The notes: generated from the sequence alone by a model not told the origin. A stretch of DNA of 29,469 nucleotides from Candidatus Thorarchaeota archaeon (GCA_016839605.1 JAEOTX010000231.1:1-29469); one strand, 5' to 3'; shown: positions 9,027 to 24,766, counted from the stretch's first letter. Numbers and translations are program-made.

Positions 9027-9578
9027 TTGTCAAAAAGAACCCCGCGTTATATGTTCAAGATGGTATCTCTGGGCGACGCGGCCACAGGCAAGACTAGCTG
9101 CATCATCAGATACACCGAGAATAGTTTTGGAGAGTCATACCAAGCAACAATGGGAACCAATATCGCTGTCAAGAATCTCCAAGTTGCATTGACTGAAGAA
9201 GAGACCGTGCCAGTACAAATAGTATTATGGGATCTTGGAGGTCAACCTGATTTCAAAGAGCTTAGACTGAGATACATGGCTGGAGCTAGCATTGCGTTCA
9301 TCGTCTATGATGTGACGAATCCGAGGTCTTTCTTGCATGTCTATGATTGGTATTCAAATTTCATATCCGTGAATCCAGATGCCGCAGTATCCCTTGTCGC
9401 GAACAAAATAGATTTGGATGACAGAAAAGTGCCTCCTGAAGCGGGGCAAATGCTTAGTGATTGGCTAGATGTAGCCCACATTGAAACGAGTGCAAAGACT
9501 GGAGAGAACGTAGAAGAACTCTTCACAGATCTCATCTCCCTTGGAGTGCAAAAGCATAGTTCAAGAAGCATTGAATGA
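9027..9578 (+). CDS. Ras-superfamily (Rab-like) small GTPase
   Basis: G1 GDAATGKT, G2 Thr (ATMG), G3 WDLGGQ, G4 NKID and G5 ETSAK. TTG start after GGAG. No C-terminal Cys. Confidence 0.92.
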   Translation: MSKRTPRYMFKMVSLGDAATGKTSCIIRYTENSFGESYQATMGTNIAVKNLQVALTEEETVPVQIVLWDLGGQPDFKELRLRYMAGASIAFIVYDVTNPRSFLHVYDWYSNFISVNPDAAVSLVANKIDLDDRKVPPEAGQMLSDWLDVAHIETSAKTGENVEELFTDLISLGVQKHSSRSIE

Positions 9579-9787: not shown

Positions 9788-11263
9788 CTATGGGACGATG
9801 GCTCCAGCTGCTATTGTTGCATAGTCAAGGACAAAGCCAGGGAATATGCCCAACAAGATTGTACCAACAACTGCAAGTACAACAGCGACAAGTGGAATCG
9901 TTGGAACGCGAATTGTTGTTCCCTCTGTTGGTTCCATGAAGTAGCAATACCTAAGGATTCTCAAGTAGTAACCGAGTGCGAACACAGAGTTTAGCACGGC
10001 AATTATCGCTAACCACCAAAGTCCGGCATCAACTGCAGCACCAGGAATCAAGAACCACTTGAACCAAAATCCAGCTGTGAACGGCGCACCAGCAAGAGCA
10101 AAGACCATTATTGCCATCAGAAGGGCAGCAATTGGAGCACGAGCGCTGAGTCCTTTCAGATCATCATAGGTGATCTCTTTTCCTATGGAAACAGCTAATG
10201 CCCAAACAAGGATAAATGCTCCAGTCTTGATGAGAGCATGGGCAAATGCGGTAAACATTGCAGCTGCAGCCCCAAATGCGGTTCCTGCGGCAATCCCCAC
10301 AAAGAGCAGACCCATCATCATGATGGATGAGTAGGCCAGCATTCTCATGATGTTTCTCTGAGAAAGCGCCAGGACATTCCCAATTACCATGGATAGTATC
10401 GATATGGTGACAATTACAGGCATCCATTCCATTTGCGCTGCCACGAATCCAACAAGTAGTATCCTGAGCAGAGCACTCACTCCCGTCTTCTTGGTTGCCC
10501 CTGCAAGATAGCCTGTCACGCTCCCATCAGCAGTTGCATATGCGTCAGGCACCCACATCCATCCTGGGAATACACCGACCTTGAATCCAAAGCCTATCAG
10601 GAACAGCACCATCGCGAGTAGCATTGCATAGGCTGATGGTGAAGCAGCACTCCACACTGTCTCAACAAATGCGCCAATAGCTGCGAAGCTTGTGGCACCT
10701 GTAGTACCATAGACGAGCGCAATTCCAAATACGATGAGAGTAGTGGACAATAGTCCCATGACGAAGTACTTGGTTGCTCCATCAATAGCTCCTCTGTGGG
10801 GCCCTAAAGCGACGAGCACGTATGTCGGCGTGCTCATGAGCTCCCAAGCAAGAAACAGTGCAACGAGGTCAGTCGCCATAACGACCCATATTGCACCGGC
10901 GAATGACATCATGAGGAGGAAGTTGTATGTTCCCTTGTTTCCTCCATATGTCGTTGATGAAAGTAAGATGAGAAATGCGACAACCAGAATGATCCAGATG
11001 AAGAAATCGCCAAACGTGTCTCTGACGAATAGGCCTCCAAACGAAGAGCCTGGTGCAATGAGAATCATCTCAAATCCTGCAAGAATAATACCGATGAAGC
11101 TAACTGCCAAGGGGCTCGTCCTCATACCTACTACCAGAGACAGGATTCCGAATGCAATGAGAGTCAACGCTGGAAGCGAAACTAGCCAGTCCGCTGGAAC
11201 AAGGGCGAATATAGGGCTCAAGAGGTCGCTGATTGCGTCTATAATCGAAGAGAATTGAAGCAT
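9788..11263 (-). CDS. nuoN: Complex I-like antiporter subunit N
   Basis: LAWELMSTPTYVL, ATKYFVMG, GFKVGVFP..WVPDAY, RMLAYSSI and AGAPFTAGFWFK. Confidence 0.92.
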   Translation of the reverse strand: MLQFSSIIDAISDLLSPIFALVPADWLVSLPALTLIAFGILSLVVGMRTSPLAVSFIGIILAGFEMILIAPGSSFGGLFVRDTFGDFFIWIILVVAFLILLSSTTYGGNKGTYNFLLMMSFAGAIWVVMATDLVALFLAWELMSTPTYVLVALGPHRGAIDGATKYFVMGLLSTTLIVFGIALVYGTTGATSFAAIGAFVETVWSAASPSAYAMLLAMVLFLIGFGFKVGVFPGWMWVPDAYATADGSVTGYLAGATKKTGVSALLRILLVGFVAAQMEWMPVIVTISILSMVIGNVLALSQRNIMRMLAYSSIMMMGLLFVGIAAGTAFGAAAAMFTAFAHALIKTGAFILVWALAVSIGKEITYDDLKGLSARAPIAALLMAIMVFALAGAPFTAGFWFKWFLIPGAAVDAGLWWLAIIAVLNSVFALGYYLRILRYCYFMEPTEGTTIRVPTIPLVAVVLAVVGTILLGIFPGFVLDYATIAAGAIVP

Positions 11264-12807
11264 TATGGAATCACTCCTAGCATATCGTTGACTATCGGCA
11301 TCACTAGATTCAGCACAAGATCAGGCCAGAGTCCTAAGATGATTACAGGTATCATCATCAGAATTGGTGCAATTAGATCGCTCCAAGGAGCCTCTGTAAC
11401 CTCCTTTTCTGGATCAGGGTCACTGAACACAATCCTGTTCAGTGTCCAGAGTAGATATCCAACCGTGACGAAGATACCGAAAGCAATGAAGCCGGACCAG
11501 ATGTAGATATTGACAGAGCCAAACAGGACAAGCACTTCTGCGATGAATCCGCTCATCCCTGGCAACCCGAAGGCTGCGAAGACTGCAAGGATAAAGACAG
11601 CAGACATCCTCGGGGCCTTCGTCATCAATCCCCTAATGGCGGGAATCTCTCTTGAGCCTGCTGAGTACTTCAGTTGACCTGCAAGAATGAACATGACAGA
11701 TGAGATCATCCCATGGGATACCATCATGAAGACTGCGCCTTGAACTGCAAGGCTAGCTGAGAATAACTGTCCTTCAGTGGCTCCTCCTCCAATGGCAAAT
11801 CCACCGATGGCAACTCCAAGCAGCACCCATGCCATGTGATTGATGGATGTATACGCGACCATTGACTTCACATCTGTCTGACCCATAGCTACAAACGCCG
11901 CATAGATGCACGTGAAGATCGCGAGGATTGCAAATGGGATACTAAGTCGAGCGAAGCCCTGTGGGACCATCCAGAGACCCAGCCTGATGAAGCCATAGCC
12001 GCCCATCTTTAGGAGAATACCAGCGAGTATCACTGAACCCGGAGTGGGTGCCTTCACGTGAGCCCATGGCAGCCAGTTGTGCAATGGGAATACTGGTAGC
12101 TTGACTCCTGCACCTAGGAATACAGCCAGTGCAAAGCCAATCTGAATGTTGATAGCGATTGGTGCAGCCTTGATTGACAGCATATTGAATGTGCCAGGTC
12201 CTAGGAAGAACAACGCCATGAACGAAACCAGCATCACTGCTGAGCCAAGATGTGTGTAGATGAAGAACTTGACAGCCGCATGCTCGCATCCTTCCTCGCC
12301 CCATCTTCCGATGATGAAGAACATCGGGATAAGGACCAGTTCCCAAAAGATGAAGAAGCTGATGAGATCAAGTGACATGAATACTCCAAGTAGTCCTGTC
12401 TGCAGCATCAGGAAGAACATGTAGTACAAGTTCTTTGATTTGTCTATGTGATTCGAGCTAAGAGCCGCGATGAAGACCACGAGGTTTGATAGGAACACCA
12501 TTGCAACGGAAATTCCATCAACTCCAAGGTATATCTGAAGAATTGCACTCCAGCTTCCAAACTGGACAGTACTGAGGGTGAAATACCACTCGTACCACAT
12601 TACACCGGGATTTGGCAGGATAGCGATAATCAGGACTAACGAGAGCAGAAGTTCAACGAAAGTGACTACAAGTGTGAGAGCTCTGGCTCCTCTAGCTCCT
12701 AGGATGTATGCAATAAATGCCGCAACTAATGGTGCGAATAGCATGAGTGGTAGTATGTTTTCCATTGGTAGCAATGCAATGAGGTCTTGGATGATTCCTA
12801 GCTGCAT
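11263..12807 (-). CDS. nuoM: Complex I-like antiporter subunit M (second, canonical copy)
   Basis: GVDGIS, FFIFWELVLIPMFFIIGRWG, KLPVFPLHNWLPWAHVKAPTPGSVILAGILLKMGGYG and GLPGMSGFIAE. Confidence 0.93.
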   Translation of the reverse strand: MQLGIIQDLIALLPMENILPLMLFAPLVAAFIAYILGARGARALTLVVTFVELLLSLVLIIAILPNPGVMWYEWYFTLSTVQFGSWSAILQIYLGVDGISVAMVFLSNLVVFIAALSSNHIDKSKNLYYMFFLMLQTGLLGVFMSLDLISFFIFWELVLIPMFFIIGRWGEEGCEHAAVKFFIYTHLGSAVMLVSFMALFFLGPGTFNMLSIKAAPIAINIQIGFALAVFLGAGVKLPVFPLHNWLPWAHVKAPTPGSVILAGILLKMGGYGFIRLGLWMVPQGFARLSIPFAILAIFTCIYAAFVAMGQTDVKSMVAYTSINHMAWVLLGVAIGGFAIGGGATEGQLFSASLAVQGAVFMMVSHGMISSVMFILAGQLKYSAGSREIPAIRGLMTKAPRMSAVFILAVFAAFGLPGMSGFIAEVLVLFGSVNIYIWSGFIAFGIFVTVGYLLWTLNRIVFSDPDPEKEVTEAPWSDLIAPILMMIPVIILGLWPDLVLNLVMPIVNDMLGVIP

Positions 12808-12808
12808 T

Positions 12809-15070
12809 CTAGAACACCCCCATGGATAGCAGAATGACTATGATCAGAATCCCAATTCCGAACATGATTACTCCCACGTAGTCATTGACTCGGCCAGTCT
12901 GTGCAGACTGACTGGACTCTGAGGCTGCAACGCTGTATGTTGAAACACCCTCAGCGAAGCCATCGATTACATTGTCATCGAACCATCTCAGTTTCGTGGC
13001 AAGACCCTTGCCTGTGTCAGCTGACTTGAAATCGATTCCGTCGATGATCTTGTTATCGACATTGACACGGTATCGATCAGTAGCGTTCAGGAACCCGTTC
13101 AGTATCTTGTAATATAGCTCATTGATGTACCAGCGATGCTTGAGGAAGTTGTGGGCTTTCCTTCTGAAGCCTTTCTCTGGCACCCATGTGTTGGGTGTGT
13201 CTGCACCCTTGATATACATCATATAGCCAGGAATTCCACCCAAGGCGAGTGCACCCAATGTAATGGCAAATGGGATGATGCCAGGATAGGTGATCTTGAC
13301 CTCGATCATATGTGCAAAGTTCTCAGCCCAAGTGTGACTCTCCTCGAGTACTATGTTTTGAACGAACGGGAAGACAAGGAAGGCAATGATTGTGAAAGCT
13401 GCCAGAATATATAGTGGCACCATCATCGCTGGGCCTGGGTCATGAGGATCTGAGTGATGTTGCTCCTCTGTGTGCTCTTCTTGAGTTTCCTCATGCTCTT
13501 CGGAGTGCTCCTCCTCGTGCGTGTCGTGTGACTCGTGATGGTCATGGCTCTGCTTTGAGGGACCGTAGAATGTGATCCCCATGAAACGCAGACTGTAGAA
13601 GATTGTACATGCTGCTGCCAGTATCGCGAAGAAGAATAGCACCAATCCAAGTGGATTAGTCCAATGTGCTGCTAACTCATAGGTGTACTCAATGATGGAG
13701 TCTTTAGACCAGAATCCTGAGAATGGTGGGATTCCAGCCAACGCGAGAACTCCAATCCACATCACTATGAAAGTCTTGCGCATGTGATTCTTGAGACCGC
13801 CCATTTTCGTGATGTATTTCGTATGCAATGCATGTATCACTCCTCCTGATGCAAGGAACAAGAGGGCTTTGAACGCACCATGTGATATCACATGCATTAC
13901 ACTACTCAGGTACGCATCTGTAAAGTGAAGTCCCTCAGCCTGAAGTATTCCACCCACCCCAAGTGAGAGCATCATGTAGCCAAGCTGGCTGAGAGTTGAA
14001 AAGGCCAATATCTGCTTAAGCTCGTTGGACACCATGCCCATAGTAGCTGTCATCAGAGCAGTTATTCCACCAATGATAGCCACGAAGATGAAGAATGAGA
14101 GGGCTGCTTCGAATCCGATAGCCTGAAGTCCACTGATGTGGTCACCTCCATTATGCCCACCACCCGCTGCAGACACCATTGTCACAAGGAATCGTGCAGT
14201 GATGTAGATACCAGCCTTGACCATTGTTGCTGCGTGAATCAATGCAGATACTGAAGTTGGGCCAGCCATTGCTTCAGGTAGCCAGACTTGAAGTGGAGCT
14301 TGACCGGACTTGCCGATAGCGCCCATGAAGATGAGTAGGAATGTTGGCACAAGCATTCCAATGCCAGCCATCGTAGCCCACCAGTGCTGAGCGTCAGCAG
14401 CCATCTCAGTGAATGAGAATGTACCAGTGAAAACGAAGAGTATCAGGATGCCACCCAGCATGAATGCATCGCCGATTCTCGTGACAATAAAGGCCTTAGT
14501 TCCACAGTGCGTGTTGTATTGACCCTCGGTCTCAAACTGGAGTAGTGGGTTTGTGTGATCAATGTCATTCTGTTCAGTTTCCATTGGATTTCTCTTGTCA
14601 TTCCAGAATCCTATCAGACCGTATGAACAGAAACCCATGATCTCCCATCCGATGAATGCAATCAACAGGTTGTTGCTGAGCACGAGAGTGAGCATCCCAC
14701 CTCCAAAGGCGAGCATTAGGATGAAGAATCGATTGCGGTCTCCCTCGTGTGCCATGTACTCTGTTGAATAGACGTAGATTAGGAAACAGAGTGTACTTGC
14801 CAGTATCCCCATGATCACTGAGAGTGGGTCCAGAAGTACTTCGAACTCAAGTCCTAGGACCTCTATCCACATCCAGTGTGTAGTCTGGGTTGGATGTCCA
14901 ATCTCAGGTAGGAGTGACCAGCAGAGAACCATAGAAATTCCCATGAGGATTGAAGGAGTCCAATCGCGCAGTTTTTCGCTGAACATTCCGACAACTGGAA
15001 CGAGCAGTGAGCCTAGCAGAGGAATCACGAGGATGAGCCAATAGGGTAGTCCAAGTAACATGTCAATCAC
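12809..15070 (-). CDS. nuoL: Complex I-like antiporter subunit L, elongated (753 aa)
   Basis: GWEIMGFCSYGLIGFW, KSGQAPLQVWLPEAMAGPTSVSALIHAATMV, STLSQLGYM, FSGFWSKD, and a C-terminal lateral helix ending QTGRVNDY plus a final TM. Confidence 0.95.
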   Translation of the reverse strand: MIDMLLGLPYWLILVIPLLGSLLVPVVGMFSEKLRDWTPSILMGISMVLCWSLLPEIGHPTQTTHWMWIEVLGLEFEVLLDPLSVIMGILASTLCFLIYVYSTEYMAHEGDRNRFFILMLAFGGGMLTLVLSNNLLIAFIGWEIMGFCSYGLIGFWNDKRNPMETEQNDIDHTNPLLQFETEGQYNTHCGTKAFIVTRIGDAFMLGGILILFVFTGTFSFTEMAADAQHWWATMAGIGMLVPTFLLIFMGAIGKSGQAPLQVWLPEAMAGPTSVSALIHAATMVKAGIYITARFLVTMVSAAGGGHNGGDHISGLQAIGFEAALSFFIFVAIIGGITALMTATMGMVSNELKQILAFSTLSQLGYMMLSLGVGGILQAEGLHFTDAYLSSVMHVISHGAFKALLFLASGGVIHALHTKYITKMGGLKNHMRKTFIVMWIGVLALAGIPPFSGFWSKDSIIEYTYELAAHWTNPLGLVLFFFAILAAACTIFYSLRFMGITFYGPSKQSHDHHESHDTHEEEHSEEHEETQEEHTEEQHHSDPHDPGPAMMVPLYILAAFTIIAFLVFPFVQNIVLEESHTWAENFAHMIEVKITYPGIIPFAITLGALALGGIPGYMMYIKGADTPNTWVPEKGFRRKAHNFLKHRWYINELYYKILNGFLNATDRYRVNVDNKIIDGIDFKSADTGKGLATKLRWFDDNVIDGFAEGVSTYSVAASESSQSAQTGRVNDYVGVIMFGIGILIIVILLSMGVF

Positions 15071-15071
15071 C

Positions 15072-16589
15072 TCATGGAAGTAGGGTAGCTATTCCTTCTA
15101 CACCAGGAACGATGACATCAAGTGCCAGACCTGGGAATATTCCAAACAGCACAATGAGCACGCCAAGGATGATCATTGGGTAAGTCATCCAGTTCGAGCT
15201 CTCTCTCACATCCTCTAGTTCTGTGGGATGAGGCCCAAGGAAGACCTTCCATAGATACCTGAGCATGTATCCTGCGCTTACTATAGAGCTTGAAACTGCC
15301 AATATGGACAGGACAAAGAACTCAGGTCGAGCTAGACCTCCTGATCCCATCAGAACGGCATCAAAGCCGCCAAGGAACATCATCCACTCACTAGCGAATC
15401 CAGAGAGGGGTGGACTTCCTGCAATGCTCAAGGCACCAATGGCTGCAGCGAATGCTGTGATGGGCATCTTATTCGAGAGACCGCCCATCTTGTCAACGTC
15501 TCTCAGATGAGTCTGATGAATCACAGCTCCAGCGGTCATAAACAGGAGACCTTTGCTGAAAGCGTGATTGATGAGATGAAACAGACCACCAGATATGCCC
15601 ATCGTAGTGATCATCCCCAATGCAAAGAGGACATAGCCCATCTGCGAAACTGAAGAGTAAGCCAGCAATCGCTTGATATCCTTCTGGACAAGAGCCATGG
15701 CTCCTCCGTAGAACATCGTCACAACTCCAAGTACTCCCATCCAGAACGACAGTGTCTGGGCCGCAGGGCCAAGCGTGATGATTCCAAATCTCACCAGAGC
15801 ATAGGCACCGGTTTCAATCATAGCTCCTGAGAGCAGAACAGAGATTGGTGTTGGCGCTTCCGCGTGCACAGGGGGCAGCCACCAGTGTATGGGGAACACA
15901 GCCATCTTGACAAGGAAGCCCGCTGCGAGCAAGACAAAGATTAGCTGAAGAAGTTGAAGATCAGACCAGATTGCTGGAGCCATCCGTAGGATGGAATATA
16001 GCTCAAAAGTACCTGTAAAGAAGTACAATAGACCGAAACCAATCAATATACAGACTGCGCCAGCTTGTGTGTAGAGCCAGAACTTGATGGCAGTACGTTT
16101 CCTGGTTTCTGGCAATCCCCAGAACAGAATCAGGAAATAGGCCGGAACCAGCATGAGTTCCCAAAAGATGAAGAATTCGATCAAATTAGTCGCCAAGGTC
16201 ACTCCTTGCATTCCCATCAGGAAGAACAAGGTGTTCGCGAAGAAAGTAGGCTTGTTCTCGCTGTGCTCTGTGTAGCCAACAGCATAGACAACTGAGAGGA
16301 AACCAAGCAAGACTACTGCAAAGGTGATCGGGAAGGCTATCTCATCGAGATAGAGTCCAAACTCACCCAGGACAACTGACCAGGTGACTTTCTCTGCAGC
16401 TCGACCGCCCTCAACTAGGACGCGGTAGAAAGGTGGCACCATGAGGAATGCTGCGAACGCTGAGAATCCAACTGCAATCTTTCCTGAAGTCTTTTCGAGT
16501 CGACCTCTAAGTAGGTAGATCAGAAGACCTCCGATGAAGAGGACTAGCAACGATGTGGTCATGAATGGGAACTCGAACGCGGCCTGCAT
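15072..16589 (-). CDS. nuoM: Additional NuoM-like antiporter subunit (M1)
   Basis: FFIFWELMLVPAYFLILFWG, IKFWLYT, KMAVFPIHWWLP.VHAEAPTP, LLAYSSVSQMGY and SGFASE. Start placed at ATG 16589 (TGATG overlap with the nuoI stop, AGGAGGT RBS) rather than 16613. Confidence 0.85.
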   Translation of the reverse strand: MQAAFEFPFMTTSLLVLFIGGLLIYLLRGRLEKTSGKIAVGFSAFAAFLMVPPFYRVLVEGGRAAEKVTWSVVLGEFGLYLDEIAFPITFAVVLLGFLSVVYAVGYTEHSENKPTFFANTLFFLMGMQGVTLATNLIEFFIFWELMLVPAYFLILFWGLPETRKRTAIKFWLYTQAGAVCILIGFGLLYFFTGTFELYSILRMAPAIWSDLQLLQLIFVLLAAGFLVKMAVFPIHWWLPPVHAEAPTPISVLLSGAMIETGAYALVRFGIITLGPAAQTLSFWMGVLGVVTMFYGGAMALVQKDIKRLLAYSSVSQMGYVLFALGMITTMGISGGLFHLINHAFSKGLLFMTAGAVIHQTHLRDVDKMGGLSNKMPITAFAAAIGALSIAGSPPLSGFASEWMMFLGGFDAVLMGSGGLARPEFFVLSILAVSSSIVSAGYMLRYLWKVFLGPHPTELEDVRESSNWMTYPMIILGVLIVLFGIFPGLALDVIVPGVEGIATLLP

Positions 16590-17020
16590 CAACGGAACCT
16601 CCTTCCGCGCCACTCAAGTGGGTCTCTGTCAAGTGTCTCGATCTTATCAGGACCGTAGAGCAGGTCCTCTCTCTCTCCCTCGCTGATGTCAACGACTTTG
16701 GTGTGAAATAGCGCATCAAACCTGCAGGCCTGAGTACACATGCCGCAAAAGATACAGCGTGTGTAGTCGAAGAAGAGAGCCGCATCCTTCTCGTAATGCT
16801 TGTCACTCTTGTCGATACTGATAGCTACATTTGGACAAGCTCGTACACACTGCATGCATGCTGTGCATTTTTCGCGGACATGTATATGCCTTCCACGAGT
16901 CCTCTCCGGATACTCCCGGTCCTCGAAGGGATAGAAGTACGTAAAGGGTCGGGACATCACTTGACGGAATACGTGTCTCAATATCTGGAATATGTCACCT
17001 AGGTTTCTGAAGAATCCCAT
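16589..17020 (-). CDS. nuoI: Complex I-like subunit I (2x[4Fe-4S])
   Basis: TYFYPFE...PERTRGRH, CTACMQCVRACP and CIFCGMCTQAC. Confidence 0.93.
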   Translation of the reverse strand: MGFFRNLGDIFQILRHVFRQVMSRPFTYFYPFEDREYPERTRGRHIHVREKCTACMQCVRACPNVAISIDKSDKHYEKDAALFFDYTRCIFCGMCTQACRFDALFHTKVVDISEGEREDLLYGPDKIETLDRDPLEWRGRRFR

Positions 17021-17026
17021 CTTGCT

Positions 17027-18175
17027 CTACCCTCCTATTCCTAGAATTGCTTGCAGTGCTGGAATGTTGGCGATTCCCAACATGACTAGCACGACGTTCA
17101 GTATTGACAGTGGAAGTAGATACTTCCAGCAGAAGTACACGATCTGGTCCTGCCTGAGTCGATGGAACGATGAAGTCACCACGACAAAGAAGAAGAACAC
17201 TATCAGGAACTTGATGATGAATATCACACTGCCTGGTAAGAAAGCTGGTCCTTGGAATCCACCAAGGAACAACGCAACAATGAGGGCTGAATAGAGAGCC
17301 TGCTCAGCGAACTCAGCAAAATATGTCAGTGTGAAGTAGATACCGCTGAATTCAGTCCTCCAGCCGAAGATGACCTCAGAGTCAGCAACTGGAGCATCGA
17401 ATGGAAAAGTACCAACAGAAGCAATTGCTGCTACAAGGAAGGTCGCTACGTTGATTGGCAGCAAGAAGATGAACCAGATATTCGATTGTGCCTGAGTGAT
17501 TGCCATTACGCTCAGGGAGCCGGCTAACATAGCTGGTCCAATTGTCGAGATGATGAGTGGAATCTCACTTGCAAACTGATTGTTAGCTGCTCGGAATCCG
17601 CCGATGAGTGTGTACTTTGAGCCGCTTATCCACCCTGATAATAATGCGACCACTGGTACAGCGGTTAGGAAAGCGAAGACCAGCACGAGGCTTACTGAAA
17701 GATCAGCAATGAACCAGATTGGATCCCATGGGATGAATGCAAAGGGAATGAGAACCACAAGCAGAAGCATTGAGGGAAGGAACCTGTACATCCAGCGCCT
17801 TGCTTTATCAGGGATAATGGTCTCTTTTGCTACCAGCTTTATCGCATCAGCGAAGAGCTGGAGACCTCCATACTTCCCTAGGTGGAAAGGCCCTCGTCTG
17901 TCTTGAATCCTGCCCCATAGCTTCCTCGTGAACCAAACCGCGAAGATAATCGTCATGAGTATGAACACAAGACCAGGGAATAGGATAGCTCGAATGAGGA
18001 AGAAGAAGTTTGCTACATCGAAGACTGCAGCCCAAATCCACGTGAAGATGCCCCATATCCAGTAAAAGATTCCACTTACAATGCCAAATATCCACTGAAT
18101 GACTCCATAGAGCCATGAGGGAATTCCTTGGAGCCAAGCAAAGAAGTCTATCTGCAGAACGACACCTCCCATCAT
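17027..18175 (-). CDS. nuoH: Complex I-like membrane subunit H
   Basis: RKLWGRIQDRRGP, GGLQLFADAIKLVAKE, SKYTLIGGFR, PFDAPVADSE, EFSG and RLRQDQ..FCWK. Start is uncertain (ATG 18175 or 18172 overlapping the nuoD stop, or CTG 18157 after GGAGGTG). Confidence 0.93.
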   Translation of the reverse strand: MMGGVVLQIDFFAWLQGIPSWLYGVIQWIFGIVSGIFYWIWGIFTWIWAAVFDVANFFFLIRAILFPGLVFILMTIIFAVWFTRKLWGRIQDRRGPFHLGKYGGLQLFADAIKLVAKETIIPDKARRWMYRFLPSMLLLVVLIPFAFIPWDPIWFIADLSVSLVLVFAFLTAVPVVALLSGWISGSKYTLIGGFRAANNQFASEIPLIISTIGPAMLAGSLSVMAITQAQSNIWFIFLLPINVATFLVAAIASVGTFPFDAPVADSEVIFGWRTEFSGIYFTLTYFAEFAEQALYSALIVALFLGGFQGPAFLPGSVIFIIKFLIVFFFFVVVTSSFHRLRQDQIVYFCWKYLLPLSILNVVLVMLGIANIPALQAILGIGG

Positions 18176-19308
18176 CGATCCCACCACCCTGGATACGGGT
18201 CAAGGCTTCCAAATACTACAATGAAGTCCGCGAACTTCGCACCGGGAACTAAATGCTTGAGTGAATAGTAAGAGTTGAAACATGGACCTCGTATCTTGGC
18301 TCTGTACGGCGTCTGCGCTTTCTCCGTGGTCTTGAGCCAAAGTGTTGAGATCCCTCTAGTTCCTTCAACGCGACCATAGGCCTCACCTTCTGGGAGCCTA
18401 TTGGATTTACCACGGGCCTTGGGATCAACAATTGGGCCTTCAGGAACTAAAGGCAACAACTTTCTGATTATCTCTACTGAGGTCTCCATCTCCCTGAATC
18501 TCTGGACCATTCTGTCGTAAGCATCACTCTCTCCAGGATGCTCCTCGCTCTCAGTCACTGGAACCTCCCAATCAATCATGTCGTAGGCGAGATTCGGGTC
18601 AGGAGCATCTTTACGCAAATCCATTGGCAGACCACATGCTTTGATTGGCGGTCCGCTGAGTCCGAACTTCAGACCCTGTTTCAGAGTGTATTGCCCAATG
18701 CCTTCAGTTCGTGCTCGGAAGGTGGGACTCCCCATGAGCATGTCACGCATTACGGGCATTCTATCCTCGAAGCGCGCTATGGCGATATCCAGCTTCTCGA
18801 GCACTTTGTCGTTGAAGTCGTACTTTACACCACCCGGAGTGCTGTAAGACACTGCATGGCGTGAGCCAGAGAGTTCCTCGAAGGCATCTAGGAAGAACTC
18901 ACGATCAACCCATGGCCATAACAACATAGCAAACAGTCCAAGCTCTGCAGAGAACTGGCCCCACCAGAACTGCAGCGAATGAATCCTGCTTGCCTCCATC
19001 ATGATAGTTCGCATGACCTTGGCTCGTTCTGGTACTTCGAGTCCGGCAATCTTCTCAACTGCTTGGACGTAAGGATACTCAGCAAGGAACGCCTCAAGCA
19101 TGCAAAGTCTTTCCATTATGAGAGCGCCTTGTCTGAAGTTCCTGAACTCCAGACACTTCTCAGCAGAACGATGGAAGTATCCAGCATTAGGATCGCATTC
19201 GACTACAAAGTCTCCAACCAGAGTGAGTTTAGCGGCCCATCCATGTGCAGATACGTGCTGAGGCCCAAACCAGATCTCAGTGGTCTCATCAAGAATATCG
19301 GGGCTCAT
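18172..19308 (-). CDS. nuoD: Complex I-like subunit D (not a NiFe hydrogenase)
   Basis: GPQHVSAHG, GYFHRSAEK, LSGP, VEGTRG, PYRAKIRGP and C-terminal SLDPYPGWWDR. Only one of the four Ni-ligand Cys positions is retained. Confidence 0.92.
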   Translation of the reverse strand: MSPDILDETTEIWFGPQHVSAHGWAAKLTLVGDFVVECDPNAGYFHRSAEKCLEFRNFRQGALIMERLCMLEAFLAEYPYVQAVEKIAGLEVPERAKVMRTIMMEASRIHSLQFWWGQFSAELGLFAMLLWPWVDREFFLDAFEELSGSRHAVSYSTPGGVKYDFNDKVLEKLDIAIARFEDRMPVMRDMLMGSPTFRARTEGIGQYTLKQGLKFGLSGPPIKACGLPMDLRKDAPDPNLAYDMIDWEVPVTESEEHPGESDAYDRMVQRFREMETSVEIIRKLLPLVPEGPIVDPKARGKSNRLPEGEAYGRVEGTRGISTLWLKTTEKAQTPYRAKIRGPCFNSYYSLKHLVPGAKFADFIVVFGSLDPYPGWWDR

Positions 19309-19832
19309 TCAGACGCACCTCCCTCTGTTGGTTTAGGCTTTGGCGGCGTTCTGTCAGCCTCTTTGAGACGAGATCGATCTGTCACGAAGCTTTTCCTCAA
19401 GGGATACTTCCCTTCGAGCTCTTCTGGGAGCAACAGAAGTCTCAGGTCGGGATGGTCCTTGAAGTTTATGCCAAACATCTCCCAGGTCTCTCTCTCGTGC
19501 CACTCCATACCTGGAAATATGTCACTAATTGTATCCACTTCTGGATTCGAGCCCTCTAGAGATACGCGTAAGTGATACTGAGTCCTGTTGGTTCGAGACC
19601 AAAAGATGTAGATGACTTCGAACTTGTCTTCTTGGAGGTCAACTCCAAAGACACTCTCTGGAAATGCGTCAGCTATTTCTTCATCAATCATTCCCACAAC
19701 ATCTCGAATCTTGTCGGCCGGGACTATGCACTCAAGGATGCCATCTTCCTTCGGAGTACATTCAACATCAGGGAACTTGTTGACTATCTGTCTACCAAAT
19801 GTGGCGCCAGATATAGGAGTGTCTTCAGACAT
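19305..19832 (-). CDS. nuoC: Complex I-like subunit C
   Basis: WHERETWEMFGINFKDHPDLRLLLLP....YPLRK signature. Start placed at MSEDT (19832) after AGGAGGAG, overlapping the end of nuoK. Confidence 0.92.
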   Translation of the reverse strand: MSEDTPISGATFGRQIVNKFPDVECTPKEDGILECIVPADKIRDVVGMIDEEIADAFPESVFGVDLQEDKFEVIYIFWSRTNRTQYHLRVSLEGSNPEVDTISDIFPGMEWHERETWEMFGINFKDHPDLRLLLLPEELEGKYPLRKSFVTDRSRLKEADRTPPKPKPTEGGASE

Positions 19833-20145
19833 CGAGCTTCTCCTCCTGTGAGATTGGCTTTCCAAGGTCCACTGAACCATACCGTCTGTTGTATGCAAGC
19901 ATCAATACCAAAGCTAGAGCAGTATGTGCAGCAGCTACTGATATCATGAGAATGATGAGGGCTTGTCCTGTGAGTGTAAAGGTGGGACTATAGACAGCGA
20001 AAGCAGCCAGAGCGATACTGACTCCATTCCCCATAATCTCAGCCCCAATTAGAATTCTGATGAGGTTCCGCTTTACCATCATCCCATATGCGCCTAGGCC
20101 TATCAGGATGAATGCGACAGCTAGGTACCAAGAAAGTGGGACCAT
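19825..20145 (-). CDS. nuoK: Complex I-like subunit K
   Basis: 3 TM, with GAYGMMVKRNLIRILIGAEIMGNG and GQAL....ISVAAAH.ALAL. Confidence 0.92.
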   Translation of the reverse strand: MVPLSWYLAVAFILIGLGAYGMMVKRNLIRILIGAEIMGNGVSIALAAFAVYSPTFTLTGQALIILMISVAAAHTALALVLMLAYNRRYGSVDLGKPISQEEKLDV

Positions 20146-20828
20146 CAGTCAGCCACCTCCTCACTGGCTTCTGGTTCAGAGGTCTTCTCGGATTCAGGAG
20201 CTTCCTCGGGTTCAGGAGATTCCTCAGGCTCTGGCTCAATCTCTTCTGGGACTGGCCTTGCTTCGATGCCAAATTCTCCAGTTATATCTTTCATGAGCTC
20301 AGCCTTGTCCATCTTCATAAGTGCGATAACACCAACGAGCGCTGTCACCATAATGAGCGCAACAATCTGTACGTATACTCCGTGGTCACCCCAGAGCCAC
20401 TCGGCCAGAAGAGCTACATCAAGAGAAGCGTCGATCGTTCCTTCGGGAATGGTCTCACTCCAAGGGAATCTGAGAGCCAGAATAGCAGAGATGAACATGA
20501 TAGATCCGGACACCAGTATGCCGATCTTCTTAGCACGCGGAGACTCGATTGCCTCAAGCGTGGAGTCCTGTGCTCGCGGGAGCAAAAGAACGCCGAATAT
20601 GATTAGCGCACTAATACCACCAGTATACACCGCAATCTGCATACCGGCAACGAAAGGTGCTTCCAACAGCAGGAAGAAGCCTGCAACGAAAGAAGCCATG
20701 ATGCCAAAAAAGAATGCAGCATAGACAATCTCTTTGTGCTCCAGAGCGAGATAAGCCAGCACAATCACAATGCCTGCGATTAGCAGAAACTCAACTGACT
20801 CAAATGCAGACTCGAACCCTTGCATCAA
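20145..20828 (-). CDS. nuoJ: Complex I-like subunit J with acidic C-terminal tail
   Basis: LLEAPFVAGMQIAVYTGGISALIIFGVLL signature, 5 TM and a Glu/Pro-rich tail. Confidence 0.92.
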   Translation of the reverse strand: MMQGFESAFESVEFLLIAGIVIVLAYLALEHKEIVYAAFFFGIMASFVAGFFLLLEAPFVAGMQIAVYTGGISALIIFGVLLLPRAQDSTLEAIESPRAKKIGILVSGSIMFISAILALRFPWSETIPEGTIDASLDVALLAEWLWGDHGVYVQIVALIMVTALVGVIALMKMDKAELMKDITGEFGIEARPVPEEIEPEPEESPEPEEAPESEKTSEPEASEEVAD

Positions 20829-21280
20829 TGCTCCCTCCCTGGCGCATGTGGCTTTTCAAGATGTCGAGCCTTCGCCGCGCGATATGCCTCAAGAGTCTCT
20901 TGTCCATCAAGAGAAGTCTGAGGCAAGTACTTCATGGCGTATCCAATGCCACCCATGATGATTATTACGAAGATGAAGGTCTGCCAGGCGATAATTGGAT
21001 TCAGCCTGATTGGTGAAACAGATAGCAGCCAGAGAAATGCTCCCATTACGTCTATGATTACGAAGAGAATAGTGTAGATGATATAGCTATATGGAAAAGA
21101 CATCCTGGCTGGGCCTATAGGCTCTTCACCACATTCATACGTAGATGTCTTCTCCGAGTTCTGCAGTATATGGGGTCGCAGAACCCAAGATGCCAACAGC
21201 ATGATCACAATGAGTACAATTACTAGAATTGCCCATACTAAGACTGGGATGAATTGGAGAAACAGCCTATCTGTCTGCAA
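20825..21280 (-). CDS. nuoA: Complex I-like subunit A
   Basis: EKTSTYECGEEPIG and YTILFVIIDV, 3 TM. TTG start after GGAGG. Confidence 0.92.
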   Translation of the reverse strand: MQTDRLFLQFIPVLVWAILVIVLIVIMLLASWVLRPHILQNSEKTSTYECGEEPIGPARMSFPYSYIIYTILFVIIDVMGAFLWLLSVSPIRLNPIIAWQTFIFVIIIMGGIGYAMKYLPQTSLDGQETLEAYRAAKARHLEKPHAPGREH

Positions 21281-22080: not shown

Positions 22081-22605
22081 CTATTCTGTGGATGCGTCTT
22101 CTGAAACTTCAGCTGAATCCTCTGAGACCGCGGGCTCAGCCTCAGTTTCTGTAGCTGGTTCAGCCTCAACAGCTTCTTCTGGTTCTGGCTCTGGTTCAGG
22201 TTCGGGTTTGTAGTCCAAGTCACTGACTTGCAGGATCCCAGGAGACACGCTTACATCCATGGGGTCCAACATTGAAAAGCCCCCAGATAACAGGATTGCA
22301 CCGCCCATGCCCCATGTCGCGTAAATGAGGTCACTTCCAAATGGAACTAAGACATAGATCGTGTAGAGAACGCCAACTACGATTGCAATTGAGAGCATAT
22401 TGACCTTGATCCGGCCACGCTTCGGTTTGAGATAACCAACCAGAAAGAACACCATAACCAATGGTCCACCAGCCAGGAATGGAAAGTGAAGCGCCATTGC
22501 TGTGTCAGCAAGAACTGCTAGTAATAGGTCGAAGACATAGGCACTCAGAATAATTGTGCCTATCAGCAGCATGCAATATTGATCGCTGTCTTCTCGAAGG
22601 CTCAC
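22081..22605 (-). CDS. Hypothetical 4-TM membrane protein with acidic Glu-Pro tail
   Basis: Four hydrophobic segments, then PEPEPEPEPEE. GTGA overlap with the stop of the FAD-NuoB fusion. Confidence 0.7.
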   Translation of the reverse strand: MSLREDSDQYCMLLIGTIILSAYVFDLLLAVLADTAMALHFPFLAGGPLVMVFFLVGYLKPKRGRIKVNMLSIAIVVGVLYTIYVLVPFGSDLIYATWGMGGAILLSGGFSMLDPMDVSVSPGILQVSDLDYKPEPEPEPEPEEAVEAEPATETEAEPAVSEDSAEVSEDASTE

Positions 22606-24542
22606 TGAATCATCCCCATTGCATCTTGATTCTCGTACTTCAATTGCCAGTGGGTTGTGCCCGCTCGAATCTTATTCTGGAGTATCAGATGAGCCCTAAC
22701 AAAGTCAGAAGGCTTCGGAGGGCATCCCGGAAGATACACGTCGACAGGAACAACAGACTCAGGTGGCACTTGTAGTGAATAACCGTCCCAGAACAATCCT
22801 CCACTCGCAGCGCACTGTCCAAATGCGATGACGAACTTAGGGTCCGGCATCATCTCGTAGACCCTGCGGAGTCTTGGGGCCATCTTCTTTGTGAGAGACC
22901 CAGATATCCACAGGACATCACACTGACGTGGACCAAAGAGTGGAAGCATGCCAAATCGTTCAAAGTCCCAACGTGATGCGATTCCAGCAGCCCCGTCAAC
23001 CATGCAACATCCTAATCCGTATTGGACAGGCCATGGACTATGCGCTCTGCCCCAACGGAGCACCCACTTGAGTGGTGGAAGGTTCTGTAGCCACTTCAGT
23101 AGGATTGGAGCAATTCTACCCCATCCGTTCCTGAAGAGGTCGTAGAAAATCCATAGGAAGTATTTCCCGAACTTCAGGATCAAGGGCAGCCAAAAGGCAA
23201 ACACCTTCCCTGGGTTTGATATCTCCTTCTTATCATATTTTAGCTTTGCAGAACGAATCTTTGCTAGTCGCTGTTTTCCAAAGTACGTAGAAGCTTCATT
23301 TGCGAACCAAATTCCTGTGGAGTGCGCATGGCCGCCATGTCGTTGAGCAATCTTGAACACTACAAAGCTCTGTGACCATGAGAGCATGAAGAACCTGCGA
23401 CGCTCATCTTCGAGGAAATAGCCCATCATAGTCACGGCGTTCATTGAGTTGACGTAGCCATCAATGCCTGCCTGAGCGGATCCCTGTTCGAACTGCCAGT
23501 CGTCTAGAATTGCAGTGAGGTTCTCCAAAGGCGCAAATGCCTGACCAACAACAAGTGTGGGGCCAGCCTTCTTCACCCTCATAGGGTAGAAGCGATCGTG
23601 CCACTCGTGGGCAGCCACATGCTCATCATAAACAGTTCCCTTGTACATTTCTGTGACTTCTTCAACAACTCTGAAGCCTTCAGCAATCTCCTCCTCATCG
23701 CCGTCATAAGCAACCATGATTGTGCCATGATGAACTGGGAATGGGAACTTCTCTTCACTATCCCATATCTTCTTCTTCAAGTCGGTGTATTTCGCCTCTT
23801 CAAACTTGATGGTGAAGGGCAAAGGACCATCCTCAAGGATCTTCTCAATGGCATGGACCATCAAGTAGTTCTCCTCGAAGCTTGACACGATGACCTTGAC
23901 TGGTGTGAGAGGCTTGATCTTCACTGTGACCTTTGTGATTATGCCAAGAATACCTTCGGTGTCACAGAACAAGTCAGTGTCCTTACTCTTGACTATCTTT
24001 CCAGTGGGCAGGACAACCTCCACCTCTACAACATTCTCGTTGATGTTGCCATACTTGAGAGAGCCTATTCCGTCGCCTCCCTGAGCGACCCATCCACCGA
24101 TTGTCGCCGAGAGTCCAGATGAGGGGTAGCAACGTAGGTCGAGGTTCTTGCGGTTTAGCTCGAACTGAAGGTTTGCCCAGGAGAGTCCTGGTTCCACAAT
24201 GACTGTCATGTTCTCCTCGTCAATACTCAAGATATTGTCCATCAAACGCATGTCAACGATGATACCGCCTTTTCGAGGGATGGCTCCCCCATAGCCCGAA
24301 GTGCCTGCTCCTCTTGGCACGAGAGGAACCTTGTACTTGTTCGCAAACTCATACAGGAACTTGATCTCTTCAGGGGTTTGAGGTTGCACAATCGCATCAG
24401 GCTTGACGTTCATCAACCAGCCCACTTGTTTGGGCAAAGAACCAACATCCATGCCATGAATGACAAGCTCATGCTTCTCGGTTATCACACGGTCTTCATA
24501 GACCTCAGCGAGTTCTGTCACCAGCTTTGGCTTCAGTGTCAT
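22602..24542 (-). CDS. nuoB: Fusion of a GlcD/GlcE-like FAD-linked oxidoreductase (N-terminal) and complex I subunit B (C-terminal)
   Basis: N-terminal part: PDAIVQP, VPRGAGTS..GG, VEPG, ATIGGWVA, KYG, TEGILGIITK, NPGK. C-terminal part: WGRAHSPWP..YGLGCC, DFERFG, PRQCDVL, PKFVIAFGQCAASGG, PVDVYLPGCPP. One continuous frame. Start placed at ATG 24542 after GGAGAG (the track gives TTG 24557). Confidence 0.92.
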   Translation of the reverse strand: MTLKPKLVTELAEVYEDRVITEKHELVIHGMDVGSLPKQVGWLMNVKPDAIVQPQTPEEIKFLYEFANKYKVPLVPRGAGTSGYGGAIPRKGGIIVDMRLMDNILSIDEENMTVIVEPGLSWANLQFELNRKNLDLRCYPSSGLSATIGGWVAQGGDGIGSLKYGNINENVVEVEVVLPTGKIVKSKDTDLFCDTEGILGIITKVTVKIKPLTPVKVIVSSFEENYLMVHAIEKILEDGPLPFTIKFEEAKYTDLKKKIWDSEEKFPFPVHHGTIMVAYDGDEEEIAEGFRVVEEVTEMYKGTVYDEHVAAHEWHDRFYPMRVKKAGPTLVVGQAFAPLENLTAILDDWQFEQGSAQAGIDGYVNSMNAVTMMGYFLEDERRRFFMLSWSQSFVVFKIAQRHGGHAHSTGIWFANEASTYFGKQRLAKIRSAKLKYDKKEISNPGKVFAFWLPLILKFGKYFLWIFYDLFRNGWGRIAPILLKWLQNLPPLKWVLRWGRAHSPWPVQYGLGCCMVDGAAGIASRWDFERFGMLPLFGPRQCDVLWISGSLTKKMAPRLRRVYEMMPDPKFVIAFGQCAASGGLFWDGYSLQVPPESVVPVDVYLPGCPPKPSDFVRAHLILQNKIRAGTTHWQLKYENQDAMGMIQ

Positions 24543-24766
24543 GTGGACTCTCTCCAAGAGACGAAGCTGCTCTCAGGTCAGGGTCGAGGAAGTATGCTCC
24601 ATAAAAACCTAGCGAGTCAGGGATGGATTGGCATATGACACAACCTACTTGACGTGATTTGAGTTGTGACGAAAACGTGCGCATGTGTAACGAGCACAGA
24701 TATTAAGGGCTGTTGCACGGCATAACTCGTTCAGCCAAATAAGCTGAGCCACCTGCCCCGAAGGTT

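Follow-up and report, generated by a model that had tools for sequence, protein, structure and literature searches.

A NuoL-like subunit with a lateral helix of two homologous 26-residue modules in a Thorarchaeota complex I-like operon that encodes four antiporter-like subunits

Does the lengthened lateral helix (HL) of a NuoL-like protein reveal an additional pump in its complex, and how could such a helix have arisen? Both questions are raised by a complex I-like operon on a 29,469-nt contig from an 80%-complete metagenome-assembled genome of Thorarchaeota (Asgard); this contig is the whole stretch of DNA analysed, termed the window below, and all positions are counted along it. An earlier note on this DNA took the helix to be extended by one subunit width through internal tandem duplication, and saw in this independent support for the incorporation of an extra NuoM. 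On balance we favour a reading in which the helix is a module-built strap that would serve a fourth pump and that probably originated at the junction of two nuoL lineages by recombination.

The operon is tightly packed on the minus strand and has the gene order nuoA-J-K-C-D-H-I-M1-L-M2-N, which is common to ~45 Thorarchaeota loci. Its genes and the NuoB fusion gene are the following.

22602-24557, minus strand, fusion of a GlcD-like protein to NuoB, 651 aa, with NuoB as the C-terminal domain (PF01565, PF02913 and PF01058)
20825-21280, minus strand, nuoA (Pfam match)
20145-20828, minus strand, nuoJ (Pfam match)
19825-20145, minus strand, nuoK (Pfam match)
19305-19898, minus strand, nuoC (Pfam match)
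18172-19308, minus strand, nuoD (Pfam match)
17027-18187, minus strand, nuoH (Pfam match)
16589-17020, minus strand, nuoI (Pfam match)
15072-16613, minus strand, M1, antiporter-like subunit upstream of nuoL (PF00361; TIGR01972, 315 bits)
12809-15070, minus strand, nuoL-like gene, 753 aa, GTG start (PF00361 and PF00662; TIGR01974, 453.9 bits)
11263-12807, minus strand, M2, antiporter-like subunit of canonical NuoM type (TIGR01972, 416 bits)
9788-11263, minus strand, antiporter-like subunit of nuoN type (TIGR01770, 284 bits)

By their Pfam matches the core subunits A, C, D, H, I, J and K and the fused NuoB are all present, and no nuoEFG genes were found in the operon. The nuoL-like gene scores above the TIGR01974 (NDH_I_L) cut-off of 407.5 bits and both M1 and M2 exceed that of TIGR01972 (263.8 bits); nuoL is separated from each of these two neighbours by 1 nt. 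At its present completeness the genome has no PF00361 genes other than the four of the operon. The hallmarks of 2M complex I (Chadwick et al. 2018, ISME J 12:2668) are a lengthened NuoL together with a second NuoM (PMC6606698), and the present nuo operon likewise carries a gene for a second antiporter subunit of NuoM-like type. The fusion of NuoB to a GlcD-like FAD-binding oxidase domain is kept upstream of the operon in most Thorarchaeota loci. Immediately past the 3' end of nuoN, and in the reverse orientation, lies a gene for a Ras-family small GTPase (9027-9578, plus strand; PF00071, E 9e-39), a family that is typical of Asgard gene content.

NuoL is the distal antiporter-like subunit, in which a core with an N-terminal domain is followed by TM15, the lateral helix and TM16. 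The parts of the tail considered here, with approximate borders for the two modules, are

12878-13132, minus strand, HL, WYINELY to GRVNDY, aa 647-731, anchor-to-anchor span of 85 aa
13016-13093, minus strand, HL module 1, aa 660-685, with the motif VDNKIIDG at 13037-13060 (profile positions 14-34, see below)
12938-13015, minus strand, HL module 2, aa 686-711, with the motif FDDNVIDG at 12959-12982 (the same profile positions, offset by 26)
12812-12877, minus strand, TM16 anchor helix, aa 732-753 (aa 727-749 in the AF2 model)

The earlier note had described the 85-aa span and a motif, D..IIDG/D..VIDG, that occurs twice 26 aa apart, and all of these details, with their coordinates, are correct: WYINELY begins at aa 647 (13130-13132), GRVNDY finishes at aa 731 (12878-12880), and the two motifs at aa 671 and aa 697 are offset by 26 aa, or 78 nt. 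The typical NuoL span of about 56-60 aa that it gave also holds, as 26 one-module representatives measure 57-62 aa. HL exceeds that of three-pump relatives by exactly one 26-aa module, and the lengthening by ~26 aa that characterises the NuoL of 2M complex I is thus found here (85 against 57-62 aa).

The AF2 model, computed from a 35-sequence alignment, has the NuoL fold (pTM 0.80) and its best Foldseek matches are NuoL/ND5/NdhF chains (E 1e-26, probability 1.00). It predicts one unbroken helix from aa 649 to 717, followed after a loop by TM16 at aa 727-749, with a low pLDDT of 40-65 along HL, as is expected for a helix modelled without its partner subunits. In the corresponding model of a one-module protein from the sister group (L116), HL spans aa 633-683 and TM16 aa 687-707, so that the distance from the start of HL to the start of TM16 is 78 aa here against 54 aa there. 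The 26 extra residues amount to ~39 Å of α-helix, computed at 1.5 Å per residue. Elsewhere in NuoL, TM14 and TM15 are separated by a His/Glu-rich loop of 43 aa with 12 E and 11 H (aa 505-547; 13430-13558, minus strand); it is disordered in the AF2 model (pLDDT <50), differs in length among the Thorarchaeota relatives and might bind metal.

Are the two modules a real repeat? The identity of 17/24 nt between the motif copies had been reported correctly, but it carries no weight as evidence and merely restates the motif, the whole units being identical at only 28/78 nt and 4/26 aa. The self-similarity of this helix alone is not significant, with 281 of 2000 shuffles reaching the score of the best diagonal, which is the 7-aa motif itself, and for this reason we have discarded the nucleotide match. 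Homology is shown by comparison with the family. A profile HMM of 59 positions, made from the 26 one-module helices, matches this HL first at aa 647-680 (positions 1-34, 25 bits) and again at aa 686-731 (positions 14-59, 40.5 bits). Positions 14-34 are therefore matched twice with an offset of 26, which identifies modules 1 and 2 as homologous, as judged solely across the family. The double match recurs in 47/47 two-module sequences tested, and of the NdhF chains in the PDB, 6hum_F aligns once to unit 1 and 6tjv_F once to unit 2 plus TM16.

In a tree of the NuoL core, built with HL and TM16 removed, operons with two modules and four pump genes are monophyletic (support 94) and comprise those of Thorarchaeota, L080/L120, L081 and L086/L110. 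L116/L139, with a single module and three pumps, form their sister group. The clade branches from within the archaeal-type L-M-M operons and is well removed from the canonical bacterial-like clade. Profiles of archaeal-type and canonical tails were each made from 16-17 sequences, in sets assigned by operon type and independent of helix features, and score the segments of the present NuoL tail as follows.

Head and module 1: archaeal-type profile 44.0 bits, canonical-type profile 14.0 bits
Module 2: archaeal-type profile 7.3 bits, canonical-type profile 25.7 bits
QTG..Y and TM16: archaeal-type profile -4.2 bits, canonical-type profile 23.9 bits

The direction is the same in 13/13 clade members, the head scoring higher as archaeal and both module 2 and TM16 higher as bacterial. 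In a sliding-window comparison the whole NuoL is archaeal-like up to ~aa 680-685 and canonical-like thereafter, with a weak signal in HL (-0.3 to -0.5); one noisy window of the core, aa 361-400, also leans canonical (type B). The distal HL is again of canonical type in L091, L102, L107 and L138, which combine an M1-type subunit with canonical M2/N. HL thus looks mosaic, its two homologous modules having apparently different ancestry, although the pattern could be due, instead of to descent, to an adaptation of the distal helix to partner subunits M and N of canonical type.

The two NuoM-like subunits also appear to come from different sources. In trees M1 groups with the archaeal-type NuoM-equivalent, and its core is MrpA-N/MbhH-like, the best PDB matches being MrpA (7qru_A) and MbhH (6cfw_H); it scores 243 bits on the NuoL model as well as its 315 bits on TIGR01972. 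M2 belongs to the canonical NuoM clade and N to the canonical NuoN clade, each with support 100. A single clade of M1 and M2, a group that was named after the first tree had already been seen, is rejected by the AU test (delta lnL 285, p-AU 9e-5). The supposition that the extra NuoM is a duplicate of nuoM is contradicted by this result; on the evidence of the trees the two genes are not recent duplicates, and the extra pump was recruited from another operon type. The name 2M implies that the extra M derives from duplication of nuoM, which is not what we find here; duplication may not be a strict requirement, because published 2M clades are themselves described as convergent. The charge pattern of M1 is unusual for a pump subunit: at ~aa 262 a Glu (…GAMIETG…) replaces the conserved TM8 Lys of MrpA 7qru_A (…MVKAG…) and MbhH 6cfw_H (…VIKIG…), and a second Glu (…SEW…) replaces the TM12 Lys of MrpA.

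The canonical-like piece of nuoL (module 2 and TM16), M2 and N make up one contiguous 3' block of the operon, and from this contiguity a crossover inside an HL module is the parsimonious origin. The NuoL core, the head of HL, module 1 and M1 are of the archaeal operon type, and module 2, TM16, M2 and N of the canonical Nuo type; the breakpoint would lie near window position 13015. A single crossover would have linked the 5' portion of an archaeal-type nuoL to a canonical Nuo 3' end (module and TM16) with its nuoM and nuoN, so that the canonical M-N pair arrived together with a matching helix module and anchor. The gene order Ma-L-Mb, which a one-step crossover needs as ancestor, was not seen in the sampled operons. 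We tentatively extend this to a broader proposal, which we hold to be a serious possibility short of probable: the helix may be the scar of one crossover in the HL module that made a longer strap and a hybrid four-pump arm at once, and the HL module in general may be a portable docking unit, specific for the type of its partner, whose type and number of copies (from 0 to at least 3) change as pumps go from 2 to 5, the five-pump Asgard operons L091 and L102 included.

The best surviving alternative, which we nevertheless consider unlikely, is tandem duplication within the gene. A 78-nt segment of an archaeal-type nuoL would have been copied in place, and module 2 and TM16 would then have drifted or adapted to the canonical M2/N, the product still being a strap for a fourth pump. 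The period of exactly 26, the double match to positions 14-34 and the common occurrence of recent exact 26-aa in-gene copies in relatives (P0024, P0033, L128) all fit such an origin, but the units share only 4/26 aa, and TM16 with the QTG..Y tail, which lies outside any duplicated unit, is canonical too (23.9 against -4.2 bits). Moreover, module 2 is nearer to canonical modules than to module 1 in 13/13 clade members, including the deepest, and the canonical-type segment is contiguous with M2 and N of the same type. With module 2 and TM16 of one type and the head and module 1 of the other throughout the clade, the internal duplication proposed in the earlier note is doubtful, and we regard recombination as at least as likely.

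How does module number relate to pump number? The survey covered 150 representatives drawn from a library of 1.8 billion proteins and, as a second set, ~75 operons with their context, of which 67 were scored; the regular-expression anchors for the span misfired on some sequences, whose modules were counted by eye from their tails, and L092 was left unscored. The anchor-to-anchor spans of HL cluster at ~33, 59, 85 and 112 aa, corresponding to 0, 1, 2 and 3 modules of 26 aa. The 67 operons are distributed as follows.

0 modules, 2 pump genes: 11 operons
1 module, 3 pump genes: 23 operons
2 modules, 4 pump genes: 13 operons
3 modules, 5 pump genes: 2 operons
2 modules, 3 pump genes (exception): 11 operons
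3 modules, 3 pump genes (exception): 3 operons
3 modules, 4 pump genes (exception): 2 operons
2 modules, 2 pump genes (exception): 2 operons

Among archaeal-type operons, 0, 1, 2 and 3 modules track 2, 3, 4 and 5 pumps. Five pumps are encoded in two Asgard loci, L091 (G072:C22, 4862-12994) and L102 (G077:C5, 1-7108), with five contiguous antiporter-like genes in the order M1-M1-L-M2-N and a three-module NuoL helix of span 113 aa. In one related lineage, L107/L138, three modules go with four pumps.

Long helices without extra pump genes occur in 16/67 sampled operons. A two-module helix accompanies a single nuoM in Ignavibacteria, Chitinophagales, Kapaibacteria and several Asgard families, and a more sensitive HMM search of all exception loci recovered zero additional pump genes. 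The genomes of two-module bacteria (L071, L074, L077) hold L-M-N triplets and Mrp only, with no spare pump gene, and Asgard long-helix loci with one nuoM include L084, L098, L099 and L112. A hidden membrane partner in the nuoL-nuoM gap of L112 was considered and rejected, since the opposite strand of this gap encodes a charged, soluble protein. The earlier note had named the same duplication in NuoL of operons with one nuoM as what would refute its reading, and outside this clade two- and three-module helices do occur with L, M and N only. Length alone is therefore no proof of an extra pump, and the helix cannot stand as independent support for the extra NuoM.

Several further arrangements were met in the survey. 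Three-module helices occur in complete A-B-C-D-H-I-J-K-L-M-N operons with three pumps only (L099, L108 and L140, of Asgard family f21). Two adjoining NuoL-like genes in L105 (G161:C50, 1747-6601) encode proteins of 722 aa (two modules) and 749 aa (three modules). Near-identical and very recent 26-aa repeats of HL are present in L128 (G108:C17, 8006-11594; two), P0024 (two) and P0033 (three), L128 having only two pump genes despite its two modules.

Within the clade of the present operon, two modules are invariably accompanied by four pump genes in the order M1-L-M2-N (13/13 sampled rows and ~45 Thorarchaeota loci); both features arise on the same branch and never separate. Over the whole NuoL tree at least 11 changes of module number and at least 6 of pump number are required. 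Independent contrasts of two or more modules against four or more pumps gave 3/6 in favour, 0 against and 3 unchanged (sign test p = 0.25), too few events for significance. The link between modules and pumps is thus directional and not general, and it is perfect within the clade.

These data also bear on the idea that the extra module is unrelated to M1, being surplus strap or the seat of a non-pump partner, with M1 placed elsewhere, for example distal to NuoL, or in another assembly. The 16/67 operons in which modules exceed the pump requirement, and the two-module bacterial genomes with L, M, N triplets and Mrp only, provide precedents for this. We nevertheless judge it improbable for the present operon, since the two traits are inseparable in the clade and arose on one branch, M1 and nuoL are 1 nt apart in a tight operon that holds the only four PF00361 genes of the genome, and modules follow pumps from 0/2 to 3/5 in archaeal-type operons. 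That there is no real repeat at all, the second D..VIDG having recurred by chance or convergence inside a 26-aa insertion of unrelated origin, as the 281/2000 shuffles of the lone sequence might suggest, is scarcely credible in view of the two profile matches at 25 and 40 bits, their recurrence in all 47 two-module sequences, the separate NdhF chains that align to each unit and the quantisation of HL lengths in 26-aa steps.

We return to the module-built strap. HL would consist of a head, N copies of a 26-aa docking module and a tail, with no module in two-pump enzymes, one in three-pump enzymes and two in this one. HL connects the TMH7 helices of consecutive antiporter-like subunits (PMC7419157), and pumping is impaired when 6-7 aa are inserted into the E. 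coli HL between L and M (PMC3274701). With 26 more residues the strap can most likely cross one further pump on its way from NuoL to the site at which TM16 would re-enter the membrane beside the proximal subunits; the physical contact of HL with M1 and the order of the subunits in the membrane are, like the recombination event, what we infer. The length of the helix agrees with a fourth pump and is no proof of one. Such a pump, if assembled, would move a fifth ion per cycle, as proposed for 2M enzymes, and shift the ion-to-electron ratio of the respiratory complex, a ratio that matters for energy-limited sediment archaea near the eukaryotic stem. The modular strap offers a simple read-out from sequence, a span of ~33 + 26n aa, with the caution that a long NuoL helix by itself is unusable for annotating extra pumps, because many operons with one nuoM carry one.

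Finally, we compare the operon with known systems. MrpA and the two-pump archaeal L-M operons share the TM15-HL-TM16 strap (Mrp structure, PMC7419157) and form the zero-module end of the series, with a span of ~33 aa (11 sampled operons), one partner pump and no repeated module. NuoL proteins with a long helix and one nuoM, from Ignavibacteria, Bacteroidota and Kapaibacteria (L071, L074, L077) and from Asgard (L084, L098, L099, L112 and others), contain the same 26-aa module two or three times, with a W-F-D-x-x-V-I-D-G motif almost identical to that of module 2 here; unlike the present operon, these loci encode L, M and N only, in operon and genome alike. Similar HL insertions have been noted before in NuoL from complexes that lack an extra M (PMC9040806). 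Complex_I_3 of 'Ca. Manganitrophaceae' also has a 26-aa HL insertion for extra pumps and is regarded by its authors as a hybrid of two complex I types (PMC9040806); there the strap is on an MrpD-like subunit, in a bacterium, with five pumps, a number described as unique to that family (PMC9040806), whereas here it is on NuoL, with four.

The closest resemblance is to 2M complex I, in which a 26-aa HL insertion has been postulated to span four pumps (PMC9040806). In the published descriptions the longer helix is interpreted as making room for a fourth pump, and several of the 2M forms are without NuoEFG (PMC9040806, PMC6606698, PMC7300363, PMC7117926). A full-text literature search returned no paper on Thorarchaeota with NuoM and none that ties HL to tandem duplication. 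Like the 2M enzymes in these descriptions, the present operon has a second NuoM-like pump gene and a C-terminal amphipathic NuoL helix ~26 aa longer, and like several of them it lacks NuoEFG. It differs from the Chloroflexi form, described as L-M1-M2-N (PMC7117926), in its order M1-L-M2-N, and from the 2M forms of these descriptions in its Thorarchaeote host, in M subunits of two old lineages, in a mosaic-looking helix and in the fusion of NuoB to a GlcD-like flavoprotein. Measured against those descriptions, the two-module HL in a four-pump, NuoEFG-less complex I-like operon is an archaeal member of the known 2M kind, and a clade of Thorarchaeota-type operons and their relatives is thereby added to the 2M architecture.
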